DNA from: a virus
Lineage: Duplodnaviria; Caudoviricetes
IMG/VR virus record: IMGVR_UViG_3300005612_000020
Coordinates: 1 to 25,981 of that record
Direction: 5' to 3' (one strand)
DNA length: 25,981 bases
Below the pieces are notes generated by a model. That model made no database searches. It had not been told where the DNA came from and was given only the letters and a program-made list of their open reading frames with translations. A program made the position numbers and the translations under genes. Shown here piece after piece: positions 4,129 through 23,623 of the stretch. Each line of letters begins with the position of its first letter. Within the stretch, counting starts at the first letter, position 1.

Positions 4129-4628
4129 TATGCCACCTCAATAAATAATGTTACGGCTTCGTCAACATCAACAGCTATAGCATCTAGCCTGCGAAGTATT
4201 CCGCCAAGGTCATACCATTCTGACCATTCATCAACACCAACTGGATCAACTTCCCCAGTCAGTCCTGCACCAGCTCTAACCTCGAAGTATTCTACATCTG
4301 TTGCCATTGTGACCGCTGCCGTAATGGGCGCTAACCATGCCTCTGCCTGTGTGGTGTCTGTTGCATCATCAACCGGCGAGGCATCCAGCACAAAGCGGAC
4401 AAGATTACTTGATGTAACTGCTGTTGCTTTTACCCTGAAAGAAGTCACTTTTTCTGCCTCTGTCCATGTTGCTGTTGCAACATCAGTTTCCAGAACATTA
4501 CCAACAATAGATAAGTATCTGTTATGTGATTGCGCCGCAGAGCCATCAATTTTCGGGATAACCCTTTGAGAAAGTTTATTATCCGCATCTCTTTCAAATG
4601 GAGCGCCTACATCAGACGGATCTTGCAT
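4128..4628 (-). CDS. Hypothetical virion-module protein (166 aa)
   Basis: GAGGT SD upstream of ATG; acidic, beta-rich; co-oriented in the structural operon. Confidence 0.6.
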   Translation of the reverse strand: MQDPSDVGAPFERDADNKLSQRVIPKIDGSAAQSHNRYLSIVGNVLETDVATATWTEAEKVTSFRVKATAVTSSNLVRFVLDASPVDDATDTTQAEAWLAPITAAVTMATDVEYFEVRAGAGLTGEVDPVGVDEWSEWYDLGGILRRLDAIAVDVDEAVTLFIEVA

Positions 4629-4639
4629 AATTTATTACC

Positions 4640-5278
4640 TCATGTCCAAGAGCGCATCACTGCGCCGGTTGATTTTTTTAAGTTACCCTTAACGGATTGC
4701 GCTTTACCGCTTTGAATGCCGAAATTAAAGCGCTTGCCATACCAGATTGATTGTTTCATGTCTGACCATAGCTTTTCCGGTATTTCAAGAAGTTCTGATA
4801 AAGCGCCATATTTGATTGTTTCACGCCAATCATTGAACAGGATATCGTTTACTTCGGTTGCGGTATCAGTCGGCCTGGTTGCAATTCTTACAATTAAGCC
4901 ACCGACAATTGTTTCATCTGGTACTCGATTTAGTTTAAAACGATTAGGACTGATCGACATATAAGCAGTGGCTTCACCTGGATCAGCCGTTCTCCAGCCA
5001 TTGTCGATAATGTCGAGCTCTTCTTCTGTATGTCCTGGTAGCTCGCGCTCATCATAAAGAAAATGAACGATACCAACGATGTCATTATTCAATGATGCTG
5101 TCATTGTATAATCATCAACAGTGCTGATAATGTCATCAGCTGGCAGTGTTTCTCGAATTAATCGCGTATCCTTACAGAAGCGAATGCAAGCATTACGAAT
5201 AGCATCAAGCGCAATGCTTTCCGGACAGCCAGGTATGTGAGGCTGAATTAGCGGTAAAATTGATTCAAGAGTTGCCAT
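4640..5278 (-). CDS. Putative head-tail adaptor/connector protein (212 aa)
   Basis: P.I.P..PGCP......AIR.A.I.FC..T N-terminus and I..GAL..L..IP.K.WSD C-terminus are characteristic of a conserved podovirus connector gene. Confidence 0.6.
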   Translation of the reverse strand: MATLESILPLIQPHIPGCPESIALDAIRNACIRFCKDTRLIRETLPADDIISTVDDYTMTASLNNDIVGIVHFLYDERELPGHTEEELDIIDNGWRTADPGEATAYMSISPNRFKLNRVPDETIVGGLIVRIATRPTDTATEVNDILFNDWRETIKYGALSELLEIPEKLWSDMKQSIWYGKRFNFGIQSGKAQSVKGNLKKSTGAVMRSWT

Positions 5279-6423
5279 TAGCAGGACATCGCTGTTGTTG
5301 CGTCAAATGTAGCACTGGCAAGAGCGATACCACCCGTTACTGATTTGATATCGCCTCCGGTAGCACCACCTGCAACATAAGTTATATGTAAGGTATCAAC
5401 ACCACTTGCCACTGCGGCGGAAAAGGTTACGTTAAATCTCGGAGTCGCTGTGGGAGCTGTGTCGATAGCCTGGATAAGCGTTGCTGGTACTGCATCATTT
5501 TCTACATTACCGGGCCATAGTTCGGCAGTCATGCCTATTTCAAAACCAAGGGCTGATTCACAGATACATGGAATAATGTGTAATGTCGTACCTGTACCAG
5601 TAATAGGTGCATTAGAGTCGGCGGTAAATACCGTACCTGGATCATTATTAGCAGCACCACAAGTCATGAAATCAGAGGTTCCTTGAGTTACAATTTCATA
5701 CTTCTCACCCTCGACAAGCGCGGTAGCAGCAACCTCTGTTGTTTTATCTATCAGCGCGAGCGTACACATCGTTACTGTGTCTTCGTCAGGTACTACGCCT
5801 ATTTCAGCAACTTCTATACCAATTGAGCCATAATCACCACCAATAGGCGTACCTACATCAAGAGTGTCCTCTGTAAAATTGTATTGAACAAAGATATTTT
5901 TGTTCGATGTTCCTGTTAGTGCTGTTTCATTTGTGCCTGCCGTGTAATCTTTTGAAGCATAATCACAGGATGCAACAAAGTTTAATGCTAAATTACCTAC
6001 TGAATAAGCTATATCATCTATCGTTACCGAACCAGAACCACCAGACCATGAGCCTGTTTTACTTTGCTCTATCGTGATTTCAGCGTTAGTTACCTGCACA
6101 ATACATATTGCACAATTTTGCTGAACCGCTGGATAATCAATTGTTGTAACACCCGTAACTTCAGAAATCATCGTTGCCTTGTATAGCGCAACAACGCCTG
6201 TATCCCTGGAGGTATGGTCAATCTTTGTCCATACCACGCCAAGAGTAGTTGGTACACCTAAAGCATTAGCTGAACCACCAAGACCACCAAGGTCAGCGCC
6301 TCTGATACATATATATTGCTCTGAGTTTGCTGCGAAAGAATTTGAATCAGAAATGTACTGACTAAGGTTGCTTGAATCAGACCATTCAAGTGATAACTGA
6401 ATATTGCCTGCTAATAATGCCAT
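5278..6423 (-). CDS. Multi-domain virion-associated protein (381 aa)
   Basis: Beta-rich N-domain, ATALVEGEKYEIVTQGTSDF..CGAANN..GTVFTA module seen in phage structural proteins, SwmB-like C-terminal segment (VTFSAAVASGVDTLHITY). Confidence 0.5.
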   Translation of the reverse strand: MALLAGNIQLSLEWSDSSNLSQYISDSNSFAANSEQYICIRGADLGGLGGSANALGVPTTLGVVWTKIDHTSRDTGVVALYKATMISEVTGVTTIDYPAVQQNCAICIVQVTNAEITIEQSKTGSWSGGSGSVTIDDIAYSVGNLALNFVASCDYASKDYTAGTNETALTGTSNKNIFVQYNFTEDTLDVGTPIGGDYGSIGIEVAEIGVVPDEDTVTMCTLALIDKTTEVAATALVEGEKYEIVTQGTSDFMTCGAANNDPGTVFTADSNAPITGTGTTLHIIPCICESALGFEIGMTAELWPGNVENDAVPATLIQAIDTAPTATPRFNVTFSAAVASGVDTLHITYVAGGATGGDIKSVTGGIALASATFDATTAMSC

Positions 6424-6431
6424 GATTTATC

Positions 6432-8675
6432 CTAAATTAGGGGTTCTGTTGAGAAAGTAACATTATCAATGTAGAAGACAGTTTCTTCCGCGAAGCCTGC
6501 ATTACACCAACCAAGAAAACGCCCTTTATCAAACCCTCTTGCTGGTGTTACACGATCAACCCGCGTTCCGTACCAGCCACCAGTTTGGACATTTAATCGA
6601 CTACTTGTATTGCCTTCCCAGTCTGTTTTCCATATCTGAAACACGCCATCGCCTTCGTCATACTCGTAAGTTCCATCTAACGCTAACTGCGCAAGATATT
6701 GAGCCTCAGTTGCATATTTTGAGTGAATAACAAGTGTCATCCAATGGCCTATATCGTTCTGGGTAATACAGTTACTCATCTTTCCAGCACCGCAGGTTGT
6801 ACACGACCATTCTTTATTAGCTGTTTGTGAAAATGAAGTTAATACACCCAGGCTCACAAGGTCAGACGTTGGATTAGTTTGAACTAAAAGAGATGGCCCC
6901 TCCCTGTCTGCGCTATCATAAGTACCAGCCCATACATTGTAAAACTTATTGTTATCTCCATTTCCTTGCGTATTTGGGTCATGCACATAATTAGCTGGTA
7001 TAAAAAGATCATACTTACACCATAAATCTGGGTAGAAATCAGCTAAGAAGAAATCAACCTCGACACCATAGGAATAGCCATTGGCATTTTCAACTGGATA
7101 AGCGCATCTAAGGCTATAATTTCCAGTTCTTGGATTTTCATTTGATACCTCAACATTGGTAAGATTTTGTTTCCATGTAGCATTACCTGTTTTAAATGTA
7201 AAAGTCCCGTCTTCAAAATCAGCAAAAGCTATAACACCCTGGATCGGAGGGACTGGAACAGTATAACTAATGTCTGCATCTGCAACCTGTTGACCTGTGG
7301 CAACAGAGTTAAAACCACCCTCAGAATCAGAGTAAACAACATTGATTATATTACTTTGAGTTAGCGCAAGACCACCCAACGTGTAATACCATCGACTTGT
7401 TCCTACATTACCAATTGGACCTCCTGATATATCTCTAGTAACACCATTTACTGTAATCGTAATACCAGATAAGTAATTGGTTGAGGTATCACAAGCTTCT
7501 GAAAAGTTCACATAAACCTTATTTGAATCAATTACAGCATCAATTGAGTTTATCGTGGGGATAACAGTAGCAGCGTCGGTTACAATGAAATTAAATGACC
7601 CAGAGGCGTCAGATTGTAAGGTTGAGTTCGTTGCAGTAAGTTCTACAGGGAAAGTATCGGCAGAACCTCCAACCGTACCCTTTATCCATCCCAGTGTAGT
7701 TGTTGTGTCTAAACCTGTTGGGAGTGCGGCTGATCCACCATCCAGCGCCATTGCTGCAATCGCCGTTCCGCCAGTATCAGCGATATAATTCGTCACCATG
7801 TCAATAGCGACAACTTCGCCTATTGTTACGTTGAAATCAACAGGAAGCTTCCAGACCGGTTTAACAGCAGCCACGCAGGCAAGATAACCAGACTCAAAAC
7901 TCGCCATTAGAGGCGTTTCTGATCCACCACCTATGGCACTAACGGTGATATCAAAGGTTTCTGTTGAAGATAACCCAGAGGCATTCCAGCACGTCACCGT
8001 TATTGTATTAACCGTTGCTTCCGTGGTGGTGATTCCGCTTACAATTCCTGAGATATTGAAATCTAACGTAGGAGGGGCGGCGACAGAGTGTGTATAAGTA
8101 AACGATAATGCAGAGACTCCGTTGGGATCGCCATCACTGTCAATATGGTCGTTCAGGTCGAGATAGAACTGCTCACCCGCTTCTTGGGTGAAGTCTTGAA
8201 CAGGGTTGGTCGTTGACCATACGGGGGCGGTTATCTCTAAACCAACAACAATCGCCGGTAGAACTTGAGAGACTGAACCAGAGGCATTTGTAGCGTTATA
8301 AATGATTTCATACGTCCCGCCCTGGCCTGCATCAACAGTTCCATCTATATCACCAGCAGAATCAGCTCGCATTTCTGCGCCGTTAGAAGTAGGGAGGGAG
8401 CCTGAGATATAGGTATAAGTTATTGGTGAATCATCAGGGCTAACAACGTAATCAGATAACGATAAACTTACTGTCTGACCTGTTACCCAATTCTGTAAAG
8501 GTATATTTAGCCAAACAGGTTTATTAATTTCGACATCGGGGATTGTGGCTCTAGTGATTTGTGCAGCAGTAACACCTTTTGGGTTTTTGCCATCTTTGTC
8601 AACCAAAGGAAATAAATCAGTTAACTGGACAACGTGGACTAGATCTTCTTGGTCTTTTATTGATTTTACAGCCAT
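6432..8675 (-). CDS. Ig/cadherin-like repeat protein with C-terminal beta-jelly-roll (polysaccharide lyase/lectin-like) domain (747 aa)
   Basis: Three repeats each beginning xPVW with He_PIG-like LP.G......G.I.GT motifs; SwmB-like segment; C-domain FADFEDG...NNKF...W......K...DGVFQIW...FYIDNVTFS. Confidence 0.6.
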   Translation of the reverse strand: MAVKSIKDQEDLVHVVQLTDLFPLVDKDGKNPKGVTAAQITRATIPDVEINKPVWLNIPLQNWVTGQTVSLSLSDYVVSPDDSPITYTYISGSLPTSNGAEMRADSAGDIDGTVDAGQGGTYEIIYNATNASGSVSQVLPAIVVGLEITAPVWSTTNPVQDFTQEAGEQFYLDLNDHIDSDGDPNGVSALSFTYTHSVAAPPTLDFNISGIVSGITTTEATVNTITVTCWNASGLSSTETFDITVSAIGGGSETPLMASFESGYLACVAAVKPVWKLPVDFNVTIGEVVAIDMVTNYIADTGGTAIAAMALDGGSAALPTGLDTTTTLGWIKGTVGGSADTFPVELTATNSTLQSDASGSFNFIVTDAATVIPTINSIDAVIDSNKVYVNFSEACDTSTNYLSGITITVNGVTRDISGGPIGNVGTSRWYYTLGGLALTQSNIINVVYSDSEGGFNSVATGQQVADADISYTVPVPPIQGVIAFADFEDGTFTFKTGNATWKQNLTNVEVSNENPRTGNYSLRCAYPVENANGYSYGVEVDFFLADFYPDLWCKYDLFIPANYVHDPNTQGNGDNNKFYNVWAGTYDSADREGPSLLVQTNPTSDLVSLGVLTSFSQTANKEWSCTTCGAGKMSNCITQNDIGHWMTLVIHSKYATEAQYLAQLALDGTYEYDEGDGVFQIWKTDWEGNTSSRLNVQTGGWYGTRVDRVTPARGFDKGRFLGWCNAGFAEETVFYIDNVTFSTEPLI

Positions 8676-11120: not shown

Positions 11121-11944
11121 TTACTTGGTGACAACACCGTGCGCAATCGCTTCAGGTTTGATGACTTTATAGCCATAGACCTGCAAACCGCGAACCAGCG
11201 TACCGAATGTCGATTCGGCGCGAAGCGTTTCACTGTTCAGCATCTGCGAGGCAAAAGTCAAACCTGACTTGTGTCCAGCGATGATGTTTGTGATGCTTCC
11301 ACTGTTTACAGTGAGCAAGTTAGAGCGATAGATCATGAAACGATCAATCATGCCAAGACGGCCATTGCGCATTATCGAGGTCTGATCACCCGCTAGACTT
11401 GCGTCTTTCAGGTCAGATTGCTTGATAAAGCCACATGCCCATACTGGCAAGACAAGCCACCGATCAGACTCAGGTACATTCTGCTCATCCAGAACAGAGC
11501 CCAGGTTCACGATGTAATCGAGAACATTGGTCTTGTCCAGGGTGAAAGGTGTACCGGAACTACCCAGGTTATAACCACTGGAAATTGCTCCGGCAGTTGT
11601 ACCTACGTTACTGGCATGCGCATCAGCGTAGATTGTACCGAGCACTTGCGTGTCGATAGTAATCTTGAGCTGTTCGGACGCATCACGAGTCCAGTCATCG
11701 ATGTAGTTGTAGTCCGACTGGAACTTATCAACGTCATCGGCAACCAACTGCCAATATTTGCCCTTATCGATTGTGAGTTCGACGGTTTCTGGTGTCGGAC
11801 GTTCGGTCTGCAGCGTACCACCCTTGCTGTAATCACGGATAGTGATTGTCGGGGTTGTACGAATGATAACCTTGTCGCCCTGTGACGCGATTTCGCCTTC
11901 GTACTCAGTGTTTGCGATTGCCGATAAAACTGTTGCTTCATAGA
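11121..11944 (-). CDS. Major capsid protein, exon 2 (join 13037-12950, 11944-11121; 303 aa spliced)
   Basis: Frame open 65 codons upstream of the ORF-track start: YEATVLSAIANTEYEGEIASQGDKVIIRTTPTITIRDYSKGG...LTIDKGKY...LDEQNVPESDRWLV...RNGRLGMIDRF.IY.SN...RGLQVYGYKVIKPEA, a P22-coat-like HK97-fold capsid pattern. Confidence 0.92.
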
Positions 11945-12949
11945 CTACCTTATTTTATAAGGCCGGACTGTCGCTTATACTGCGTATTCTACTGGTCTAT
12001 CTCGTTTTAATTTAATATCAAACGAAATGTTTTCAACCAATTTTGATATATCAGTATTTTGATCATTCAGTCTCTGCTCCTGTGCTTTGAGCTGCGCTAT
12101 CACATCTTTGATGGCTTTTCCGTCACGGAAATTCCCACCTTCTGCGCAAGCAAGGACAAAATATAGTTGGTCATGTTTTATTACAGAATGCTTTGCAAAA
12201 TAGTTAAAAAACTGCTTTGCTTTTGATGGCGGAAGTGGCAATACCCATACCGGATAATTACCTTCTTTGTGTTTTTCCATATACACTTTTCCGCCAAACG
12301 CTTTTTGCAGTAAATCCAGCCCTATTCTATAGGCTGGTTCAGCCGTTATTCTAGCTGAAATATATGTGCATCCTGTATGCTTTCGATATGAATACGCAAC
12401 ACATCCATCACCATCAAAATAACCAGCAACCCATTTACGAGTAGGATGGTTCTGCATCAATGTAACCAATGTTTTACGATTCTTTCTAAGCAATTTCTCA
12501 TGATATTTTGTTTCATCAAGAGAATATGGCCCCTTCAAGTCTTGAAAGTAATCAAGGCAAAAATCCGCATACTGGCGTTTTATTACCAGGTACTTTTTTA
12601 TTCTTGATAACAGCATACGCGCTTGTTTTGTTGGAATTTCAAGCCTTGAATATGACTTGGAATCACTTCCAACAACGTAAACATTTCCTGCATTTATGCT
12701 GTCGTTCAAAAGATGAAGTATTTTGTCTTTCTTTGTTTCTTGTGAAAATTGCAAATAAAATGTTGGAAAAAAACCGGTATTCTTTTTAAGAAACCTAATT
12801 CCGAACGTCCCATCAGCATCAAGAAACCCTGCTATATATTTTTCACTAAGTGTTGTCATGCTTGACTGTACCTCAGTTATTTGCACTTGGATCTGGTTAG
12901 CTTGCGCCTTCCAGTTGTTTAGATCAAATTTTAATTAAGCCCTAATTTG
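11945..12949 (-). ncRNA. Group I self-splicing intron (1005 nt) in the major capsid gene
   Basis: 5' exon ends in U, intron ends in G, removal restores AAG T|TC TAT (K-F-Y). P1 UUAAGU/GCUUAA with U.G at the splice site; P3 UUUGAUC/GAUCAAA; P4 CUGG/CCAG; P5 GC-GCAA-GC; P7 GACUG/CAGUC; P8 AUACUG/CAGUAU; P9 CCUUAU-AAA-AUAAGG. Confidence 0.92.
11975..12859 (-). CDS. Intron-encoded double-motif LAGLIDADG homing endonuclease (294 aa from ATG 12859)
   Basis: Motifs YIAGFLDADG and WVAGYFDGDG; Lys-rich; GAGGT SD 10 nt before ATG 12859; AT-richer than flanking exons. Confidence 0.9.
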   Translation of the reverse strand: MTTLSEKYIAGFLDADGTFGIRFLKKNTGFFPTFYLQFSQETKKDKILHLLNDSINAGNVYVVGSDSKSYSRLEIPTKQARMLLSRIKKYLVIKRQYADFCLDYFQDLKGPYSLDETKYHEKLLRKNRKTLVTLMQNHPTRKWVAGYFDGDGCVAYSYRKHTGCTYISARITAEPAYRIGLDLLQKAFGGKVYMEKHKEGNYPVWVLPLPPSKAKQFFNYFAKHSVIKHDQLYFVLACAEGGNFRDGKAIKDVIAQLKAQEQRLNDQNTDISKLVENISFDIKLKRDRPVEYAV

Positions 12950-13037
12950 ACTTAACCAACAATTTTCCCGACCAGATCGCATTCGGGATTGTAATGCCCG
13001 AAAGTTGCGGATGTCCGCCTGCTACTGGTAAAGCCAT
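12950..13037 (-). CDS. Major capsid protein, exon 1 (29 codons + 1 nt; absent from the ORF track)
   Basis: GAGGT SD then MALPVAGGHPQLSGITIPNAIWSGKLLVK; IP..IWS.KL is the typical N-terminal motif of this capsid family. Confidence 0.9.
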
Positions 13038-13090
13038 ATTATTATTACCTCATGGTTTACGAGCTCATTGCAGACTTACTATCCACGCAT

Positions 13091-13114
13091 AAAAAAACCG
13101 ACTGCTGCCGGTTT
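13091..13114 (-). terminator. Intrinsic terminator between scaffold and capsid genes
   Basis: Minus strand AAACCGGC-AGCA-GTCGGTTTTTTT. Confidence 0.6.
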
Positions 13115-22606: not shown

Positions 22607-22991
22607 CTTCTGCTGGCTCATCGCCCAGTGGATAGCCGGTAATTCTTGCTTCGTCAAATGTCATCCCGCTAGGGAATCCCCCATCAAAAGAAAAAGTAAG
22701 TTCTTCTGTACCGCCTTCAATTACCAGACCAGGTATCTCGGTCCAGTCTGGAGTAATCGCCGGGATAAGTTCGCCTTCCGAGATAGTGATTGTTGTCGGT
22801 GGATTATCTTTGGTTTCGTATTCAATCACTGCCGTTCCACTCGCAAGCATTTCCATTGATGTCGGAAACTTCGTTATCCTGGCGCCCGCTGGTATTAAGC
22901 ACAAGATTGCGGCCTCATCCGGCTTGACAGCAAGCTTGCGTGAAATAAGTTCTATCTGCTCTTTGTTCAGAATGATTGTGGTAATGGCCAT
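22599..22991 (-). CDS. Hypothetical protein (130 aa)
   Basis: Coupled to both neighbours; acidic. Confidence 0.55.
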   Translation of the reverse strand: MAITTIILNKEQIELISRKLAVKPDEAAILCLIPAGARITKFPTSMEMLASGTAVIEYETKDNPPTTITISEGELIPAITPDWTEIPGLVIEGGTEELTFSFDGGFPSGMTFDEARITGYPLGDEPAEDE

Positions 22992-23623
22992 TAGCTACCC
23001 GTATATACCGTGTTATATCCGCTAGTCGTGTATCCGCTAAATATTGTATTCTTGCGTTTTTCAACATCACAGTCGTAATCTTTCAGCATGCCCTGCACAA
23101 TGCTAATGATCTCAATCTCTTGCTCAAGCTTGGTTTTCTGAAGCCCGCAATCCTCAATAAGCTGATTGATCACACCATCGAACACATTGCCATCGTCTTT
23201 ACCATGATAGTGGATACGCTTCTTGATCTTTAAACAGTTCTCGATCGATGCCTCTGTTTTTTTGAGATCAAGTAAAGCCTGATCTATTCCATTACCCAGG
23301 GTCATTTTCATTACCTTGACCATATCCTCATCGGGCTTTGCCTGAAGAATGAATTGATTAAACATCAGCGCCAATCGCTCACGCGCAATTGTTTCGACTG
23401 TTCTGATCGGAATCGTTGTGTCCTCGCCGCGGTCGTACCTGGCACGCTTGTCTGGATCGATCAACGTCCTGTAGGCCAAGCTCACGGCCTGGAACTCATC
23501 GACGCCGCCACCCTTGTCCGGATGCACAGACTGCGCAATTTTGCGATAAGCGTCGCGGATCTCTGCATCTGATGCTGCTCGATCGATGCCGAGTATTTCG
23601 TAGTAATCTTTCAAGCCACCCAC
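22991..23623 (-). CDS. J-domain (DnaJ-type) co-chaperone protein (210 aa)
   Basis: DYYEILGI...AS..EIRDAYRK.A...HPDK...F..V..AY..L.DP.KR..YD with intact HPD; C-terminal coiled coil. Confidence 0.9.
   Translation of the reverse strand: MGGLKDYYEILGIDRAASDAEIRDAYRKIAQSVHPDKGGGVDEFQAVSLAYRTLIDPDKRARYDRGEDTTIPIRTVETIARERLALMFNQFILQAKPDEDMVKVMKMTLGNGIDQALLDLKKTEASIENCLKIKKRIHYHGKDDGNVFDGVINQLIEDCGLQKTKLEQEIEIISIVQGMLKDYDCDVEKRKNTIFSGYTTSGYNTVYTGS

Follow-up and report, generated by a model that had tools for sequence, protein, structure and literature searches.

The window analysed here is a stretch of 25,981 nucleotides (nt) from the virus record IMGVR_UViG_3300005612_000020 (Caudoviricetes), and it carries on its minus strand a phage major capsid gene in two pieces. 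Judged from its sequence, the gene is very probably interrupted by a compact group I intron, which is predicted to splice from the late mRNA so as to restore a capsid protein of 303 amino acids, and whose likely means of spread is homing by the two-motif LAGLIDADG endonuclease that it encodes. The parts are as follows.

12950..13037, minus strand: major capsid gene exon 1, 88 nt (29 codons and 1 nt), with a Shine-Dalgarno-like sequence GAGGT upstream; it ends GTTAAGT, the last U being the U of the P1 U.G pair.
11945..12949, minus strand: predicted group I intron of 1,005 nt; it follows nt 88 of the capsid coding sequence (CDS) and ends in G.
11975..12859, minus strand: LAGLIDADG open reading frame (ORF), 294 amino acids with two motifs, starting in the P6a loop; GAGG at 12874-12871.
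11121..11944, minus strand: major capsid gene exon 2, 824 nt (2 nt, 273 codons and a stop).

Exon 2, which begins at 11944 with TCTATGAA, encodes a major head protein by profile match (phrog_267, E 2e-52; PF25209, 39.6 bits). Joined to exon 1 it gives 303 residues with no internal stop. Without splicing, the precursor RNA encodes a 31-residue peptide, which stops at a TAG three codons into the intron. Near the predicted junction there are 40 alternative in-frame joins that also have a U before the 5′ site and a G at the end of the intron, and these rules are therefore insufficient to fix the junction. Capsid homologues were used instead. Among the best 120, 14 are short at the N-terminus and 106 cover the junction, and because all 106 align there without a gap, the junction is fixed. 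K29 is present in 110 of the 120, F30 in 108 and Y31 in 110. The best homologue, P0001, is intron-free; it is identical to the spliced product at 289 of 303 positions, and at 29 of 29 in exon 1.

The original prediction for this DNA, made from its letters, gave the same exon coordinates (13037-12950 and 11944-11121), the same 303-residue join and the same 31-residue peptide, all of which were reproduced. The alignment to intron-less homologues that it proposed as a check is contiguous over K-F-Y in every covering sequence, and its statement that the full capsid protein requires splicing is supported by the junction, the early TAG and the helices described below. It also expected automated annotation to report a truncated capsid of 208 residues; this fragment is indeed in the protein collection, as P0048. 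Some of the 14 short homologues have N-termini that resemble intron ends. As a separate observation, the close capsid relatives P0002, P0004, P0090, P0018, P0021 and P0026 have odd or absent N-termini, and are probably more mis-annotated intron-split genes; for P0026 and the nuclease P0123 the longest contig has the same length, 8251.

DNA of the window was found in six runs labelled marine sediment metagenome (X1-X6), of which X1-X3 may be its source. No RNA run is listed among the public runs that contain it, which has no bearing on expression. Among the contigs listed in the comparison with the window, none has a joint that bridges the intron, and there is one loose end. This is a 172-nt contig of run X1, which matches exon 1 (9 differences in 77 nt) up to exactly position 12950; its further letters, translated by eye, give F-Y-E-A-T-V-L-G-E-I. 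By its sequence this single contig, at a depth of 2.3, is an intron-free capsid allele of a relative.

The intron has a G+C content of 36.8%, against approximately 49% in the exons. The following elements of a group I fold can be assigned.

12931..12959, minus strand: P1, in which exon 12959-12950 pairs with intron 12940-12931 (10 bp), with U12950.G12940 at the splice site.
12944-12941, minus strand: P10, a potential helix of these intron positions with the first 4 nt of exon 2.
12883..12928, minus strand: 5′ half of the core, with P3 (12928-12922), J3/4 (12921-12915) and P4 (12914-12911 with 12896-12893).
12908-12899, minus strand: P5 hairpin with a GCAA loop.
12891-12889 and 12885-12883, minus strand: P6 and P6a, respectively.
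11975..12085, minus strand: dual-coding stretch, in which ORF codons 259-294 and the stop also form P6a′ (12085-12083), P6′ (12080-12078), J6/7 (GCA), P7 (12074-12068, with a bulged A and the G-site), P3′ (12064-12058) and P8 (12057-12052 with 11982-11977).
11945..11976, minus strand: 3′ end of the intron, with J8/7 (11976-11971), P7′ (11970-11965), a P9 hairpin (11963-11947, 7 bp) and the terminal G (11945).

P2 is absent. The in-frame TAG lies within the P1 region, and the TAA stop of the nuclease overlaps the start of J8/7. The call of a group I intron, made earlier on the U before the 5′ site, its G partner in P1 and the terminal G, is thus borne out, and P10, the P3-P7 pseudoknot and the P4-P5-P6 domain are present as well.

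The long-range helices were assessed in relatives. A profile built from 52 nuclease relatives fetched 165 loci, of which 102 had enough flanking sequence once near-copies were removed; 10 of these lacked the 5′ core pattern and 22 the 3′ pattern, leaving 70. Pairing in P3 (7 pairs) and P6 (3 pairs) was left unconstrained, while P4 and P7 were partly fixed by the search patterns. The strands of P3, and those of P6, are separated by about 800 nt of ORF. P3 is paired at a frequency of 1.00 (shuffled partners 0.77, maximum 0.81), and P6 likewise at 1.00, in 210 of 210 cells (shuffled 0.56, maximum 0.65). Several pair types occur in each of their columns, and sliding a partner by 1-3 nt reduces pairing to 0.21-0.57. 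P6a is paired at 0.97, compared to 0.64 when shuffled; P4 shows an exchange of G-C and U-A (36 and 33 of the 70), and P7, with its bulged nucleotide and G-C guanosine site, is paired at 0.98, a value partly set by the search pattern.

The splice-site rule was assessed on 42 related loci picked on exon scores and lengths alone, a few near-copies among them. A join with U before the intron and G at its end is among the tied best-scoring joins in 40 of the 42, against 5.9 expected. For many loci with a divergent exon 1, junction calling without constraints did not succeed. Site mapping imposed the U/G rule, so that it yields sites and is not a test of the rule; 38 of the 70 loci reached its score threshold, and 35 of these 38 have an in-frame stop within 5 codons of the 5′ splice site. 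On this evidence the insert is a group I intron with a full core, and splicing is predicted.

The ORF within the intron matches PF00961 with 54.7 bits (cut-off 23.1), and has 223 relatives at E ≤ 0.001. The acidic residues of its two motifs, D14/D16 and D149/D151, are invariant in 52 of 52 aligned relatives. A search of viral contigs with the nuclease alone recovered only the window's own DNA. A GTG start at 12886 was considered and is ruled out by alignment, in which homologues begin at the ATG at 12859; this ATG is most likely the start of the 294-residue protein. The AlphaFold model has a confidence score (pLDDT) of 94 and is confident to about residue 280. It has a two-domain fold, as in the meganucleases I-OnuI, I-LtrI, I-SmaMI and single-chain I-CreI and I-MsoI (Z 20-21, root-mean-square deviation 3-4.5 Å over about 250 residues). 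The alignment to an I-OnuI variant has Z 21.1 and a deviation of 3.0 Å over 256 residues, and those to I-OnuI-type monomers, to mMsoI or single-chain I-MsoI, and to I-CreI have Z 20-21. The best sequence-profile matches are single-chain I-CreI and I-MsoI. Unlike these enzymes, to which it is 12-20% identical, the window's nuclease is phage-encoded and has a 35-residue tail coded by the ribozyme core, and its activity is a prediction. The ORF is likely a monomeric two-motif LAGLIDADG homing endonuclease and a putative DNA cutter, in agreement with the earlier assignment of a LAGLIDADG intron ORF.

The original prediction passed over the fact that this ORF runs through the ribozyme core, and also over the large family of capsid-gene introns described below. 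The overlap is 111 nt long. Its reading frame is identical in all 38 well-resolved relatives; the ORF extends past P3′ in all 38, and to J8/7 in 37. Sequence profiles reach solved structures only to about residue 238, so that homology of the core-encoded tail is not supported by sequence. Given as first and last aligned residues, the structural alignments to I-OnuI-type enzymes mostly stop at residues 259-262, where the core overlap starts, while those to single-chain I-MsoI and I-CreI reach residues 288-289. The tail may be an extension that the enzyme can do without, or a functional C-terminal element of the I-CreI type.

Group I introns splice in two steps initiated by guanosine, and homing proceeds by way of a double-strand break. 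In the window, a ribosome translating exon 1 would meet the early TAG and be kept out of the core. The RNA would fold, a guanosine at the G-C site of P7 would attack after U12950, and the exon would then be joined to 11944, past the terminal G. A separate ribosome-binding site in the P6a loop would serve translation of the nuclease. The last 36 codons of this ORF make up the 3′ half of the core, and so splicing and full translation of the nuclease would be exclusive for any one precursor: a ribosome completing the ORF would unfold the ribozyme, and each precursor would be either spliced or translated to the end. The nuclease may then derive mainly from excised intron. In a co-infected cell it would cleave capsid alleles that lack the intron, close to CDS nt 88, and the intron would be copied into them by repair. 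For I-TevI of phage T4, nuclease translation is reported to compete with ribozyme folding (PMC3073962). Sequestration of the ribosome-binding site was considered as well and is not proposed: the motif around it is found in just 20 of the 70 relatives, and the hairpin is weak (-2.9 kcal/mol).

The relatives of this element are concentrated in capsid genes. The nuclease has a capsid profile match as its neighbour in 80 of 80 viral loci, in 54 of 80 metagenome loci and in 4 of 5 genome loci (the collections overlap). Of 42 further loci, mostly without such a match, 32 have a scannable downstream frame, and these frames encode major head proteins in 28 cases (phrog_267, 3437, 1005), with no match for the other four. 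The family searches were seeded by this nuclease and by the core motif, and the capsid bias therefore describes this lineage only. Scanning viral contigs for the motif gave 103 loci with 74 distinct matches, some of them by chance, and among these loci are ORF-less introns with the same core; such introns lie in capsid genes at loci L273, L293, L328 and L337, some beside ORF-bearing ones.

On the scale of the window's CDS, insertion sites fall at about 64, 80, 81, 88, 89, 120, 123 and 351-357, plus 114; sites 351, 354 and 357 may be one, and 64 may be 67. Site 88 was seen in the window's own DNA only. In local conservation the sites rank from the 60th to the 94th percentile. On the nuclease tree the site labels form clusters, with 20 changes against a shuffled mean of 54.9, and 0 of 200 shuffles is as low; this is a quick tree, and 23 lower-scoring loci were labelled by eye. 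Sites 80, 81 and 89 each occur in more than one clade, and this pattern suggests that the family was retargeted among sites. Presence is patchy: among 80 capsid loci in viral contigs, 74 gave a single match, four have a different intron after residue 46, and two are the window's own DNA. Patchy presence and low G+C content fit mobility.

Introns of other kinds also occur in these genes. The second type, after residue 46 of the same capsid family, is unrelated to the first (L049:2130-3000, L052:2107-3000, L060:2093-3000 and L028:49-357); its members either lack an ORF or have one that looks HNH-like by eye (on the antisense strand in L052), and L028 scores 57 bits on RF00028, the Rfam group I model. 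At L135, L143, L192, L273 and L293 there are two or three introns per capsid gene, some without an ORF and with differing core types; RF00028 gives 82.5 bits for L135, 56.8 for L143 and 86.1 for L192. Outside capsid genes, the genome of Pseudoalteromonas phage J2-1 (L353:1100-2070, plus strand) has an unannotated intron-like element with a distant relative of the LAGLIDADG ORF, just upstream of the annotated ORF for the large terminase subunit. It probably splits that gene, the only non-capsid host seen.

A cultured relative is Pseudomonas phage HHBS10_2 (PQ287653.1), whose nuclease is 32% identical to that of the window and lies within an 885-nt intron with the same core signature:

L352:2393-3277, PQ287653.1 about 4567-5451, plus strand: HHBS10_2 intron, splitting the capsid gene.

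The split gene is the only phrog_267 match of that genome. Its GenBank record labels the nuclease HNH, has hypothetical ORFs over exon 2 and annotates no capsid. Phages O4 and IME180 are intron-free at the exact predicted junction, with a 313-residue ORF in which the exon-2 protein is 100% identical to that of HHBS10_2. Electron microscopy has shown HHBS10_2 as a podovirus particle (PMC12141865); the word "intron" does not occur in the main text of that paper. Because virions form although the only capsid gene is split, splicing in vivo is strongly implied for HHBS10_2. Introns of a closer clade lie at about CDS nt 80 and 89 in prophage-like capsid genes of Halomonas sp. H2 (L247) and Nevskia soli DSM 19509 (L244), which are possible inducible test systems.

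Several points weigh against the reading of the window's element as an active, mobile group I intron. The Infernal check proposed for it failed: RF00028 matches neither the whole window nor 11800-13100 (one match in the Rfam scan, to Dicty Class I RNA with E 9.3, is chance), and support comes from covariation in relatives instead. Of six loci submitted for ORF-less introns with the same core, only two match RF00028 (L268 with 29.3 bits and L337 with 25.9, in the same register), both below the gathering score of 50. RF00028 is itself reported to miss group I subtypes (PMC6125680, PMC11878797). In the covariation analysis, 32 of the 102 non-redundant relatives fell outside the core patterns and were dropped, and pairs may be common by descent among related introns, so that independence is overstated by the shuffles. 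Among the related loci, none yielded DNA of a further intron at site 88. P9 lacks a GNRA loop, hence unaided splicing in vitro is not assured. At 32% nuclease identity, HHBS10_2 backs the family and not the window's copy. For the window's element, splicing, self-splicing and cleavage are predictions.

Four other explanations were weighed. Tentatively, the nuclease may do more than selfish homing, and give its phage an advantage over co-infecting relatives without the intron, by cutting their capsid gene, which would explain the persistence of an intron in an essential, highly expressed gene. There is a precedent in phage PhiPA3 (PMC11620839), an intron-free relative is present in the same run as this phage, and the family is concentrated in capsid genes; however, a conserved target alone may explain the choice of site, given the percentiles noted above. 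Rather less probable is that the same intron does not splice alone, and needs the LAGLIDADG protein as maturase (or a host chaperone), homing being secondary or lost. The core is very small, with neither P2 nor a GNRA L9 loop, LAGLIDADG maturase activity is documented, e.g. for the Thermotoga 23S intron (PMC3984707), and the ORF tail is conserved and confidently modelled. Against this, the ORF-less introns with the same core exist in capsid genes, although some lie beside ORF-bearing ones, and both acidic motifs are invariant, as selection for DNA cleavage would predict.

It is very improbable that the intron is real but dead, in a defective phage with a broken capsid gene. All helices and both splice-site nucleotides of the window's element are intact, and its nuclease ORF is open. 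An intact homologue is 95% identical to exon 2, the head genes nearby are unbroken, and several sediment runs contain this DNA without a difference. That there is no group I intron at all, but an assembly chimera, a free-standing endonuclease gene, an intein or translational bypass, is hardly credible despite the missing RF00028 match: contigs of X1-X5 span the 5′ intron boundary and contigs of X1-X6 the 3′ boundary without differences (some of these runs being the possible source), an intein is excluded by the position of the insert within a codon and by its in-frame stop, and the family as a whole shows covariation in the long-range helices and adherence to the U/G rule. A group I intron that is predicted to splice, and likely to home, therefore remains the preferred interpretation.

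The core was compared by eye with the GISSD alignments in the supplement of PMC6125680. As in IB3 (the yeast cox1 aI5b type), the window's intron has no P2, 3 nt between P7 and P3′ (a spacing required by the search pattern in the 70 loci used) and a short P4′/P6 junction. In IB3, however, J3/4 is 4 nt and J6/7 is GUA in 6 of the 7 rows compared, whereas the window and the 70 loci have 7 nt and GCA. The P4′/P6 junction sequence of most family members is the same as in archaeal IA3.1, which likewise has its ORF in P6, but the two hairpins of IA3.1 between P7 and P3′ are absent in the window. IA3 comprises rRNA introns with LAGLIDADG ORFs in P6 (PMC6125680 supplement). The commonest P7 of the family (C_A_GACUG/CAGUCG) is the commonest ID motif (PMC8971849). 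By these comparisons the topology is IB3-like, and the intron is assigned to no subgroup.

Overlap of an endonuclease ORF with core helices, or core creep, is known from T4 td I-TevI and from the Synechococcus lividus large-subunit (LSU) intron (PMC3073962). In the latter a LAGLIDADG ORF overlaps P6/P7/P3/P8/P9 by 81 nt (Edgell et al. 2011, PMC3073962). The overlap in the window is 111 nt, keeps one fixed frame in 38 of 38 relatives, and lies in the mRNA of a highly expressed structural protein.

Descriptions of phage group I introns usually concern DNA-metabolism genes and HNH or GIY-YIG enzymes (PMC3984707, PMC12350094); a Bastillevirinae DNA-polymerase intron is reported to contain one LAGLIDADG ORF (PMC11878797). 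The suggestion that a capsid intron with a LAGLIDADG enzyme might be undescribed does not hold, since mycobacteriophage LittleE provides a precedent (PMC3706429). Its major capsid gene intron likewise has a U before the 5′ site, a terminal G and a LAGLIDADG-related ORF, and its splicing was shown by reverse transcription PCR and N-terminal sequencing. The LittleE capsid family differs from that of the window, and its ORF has 177 residues on the opposite strand, in an intron whose type its authors call unclear, in contrast to the sense-strand, two-motif, 294-residue ORF through the core found here. The crAss-like Delta and Zeta phages also have group I introns in major capsid genes, sometimes several per gene, as at L135, L143 and L192, but these are other phage lineages and the introns were identified from protein domains (PMC7886860). 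Lactococcal phage Tuc2009, of another lineage, has a capsid-gene group I intron, as cited in PMC3706429 and PMC2504315. Capsid-gene introns are thus already known (LittleE, Tuc2009, crAss-like), and what differs is a family nearly confined to phage capsid genes. No description of this family or of the HHBS10_2 intron was found in the literature searched; most subscription papers, and the crAss, HHBS10_2 and Bastillevirinae supplements, lay outside that search and may list such introns.

The remaining features of the window concern the surroundings of the gene. It lies in a head-morphogenesis region on the minus strand, with genes for the two terminase subunits (small and large), an SU10-like portal, a probable scaffold protein, the capsid and an adaptor. 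A terminator-like hairpin with a T run (13114-13095, minus strand) separates the capsid gene from the probable scaffold gene, and the capsid gene may need read-through or a promoter of its own; promoter and terminator scans of the window were overall at chance level. Elsewhere on the same strand are a phage-encoded DnaJ-domain protein (22991-23623; PF00226, 69.5 bits) and a 747-residue virion-region protein (6432-8675) with putative Ig domains (PF05345) and an unassigned C-terminal domain.

We hypothesise, with considerable reserve, that the relatives form a capsid-specialist group I lineage outside the 14 catalogued subtypes. One ribozyme-nuclease pair would have radiated over several phage capsid families and been repeatedly retargeted among sites 1-8 nt apart (CDS nt 80, 81, 88, 89); the core would also code a folded, functional C-terminal part of the nuclease, and completion of nuclease translation and splicing would be mutually exclusive, setting capsid output.

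A LAGLIDADG intron family in capsid genes breaks capsid annotation, as in the 208-residue fragment here and the lack of an annotated capsid for HHBS10_2. Three standing questions are how the most highly expressed late gene tolerates an intron, whether intron nucleases aid phage competition, and whether the core-overlapping residues of a homing enzyme are dispensable, as the core-creep model explicitly predicts. The family also provides a natural set of monomeric meganucleases whose targets are closely offset. HHBS10_2 on the one hand, and O4 and IME180 on the other, all isolated on Pseudomonas aeruginosa, are a ready pair of intron-plus and intron-free phages for such tests, and it is on this cultured pair, together with the family-wide dual coding, that the interest of the finding rests.

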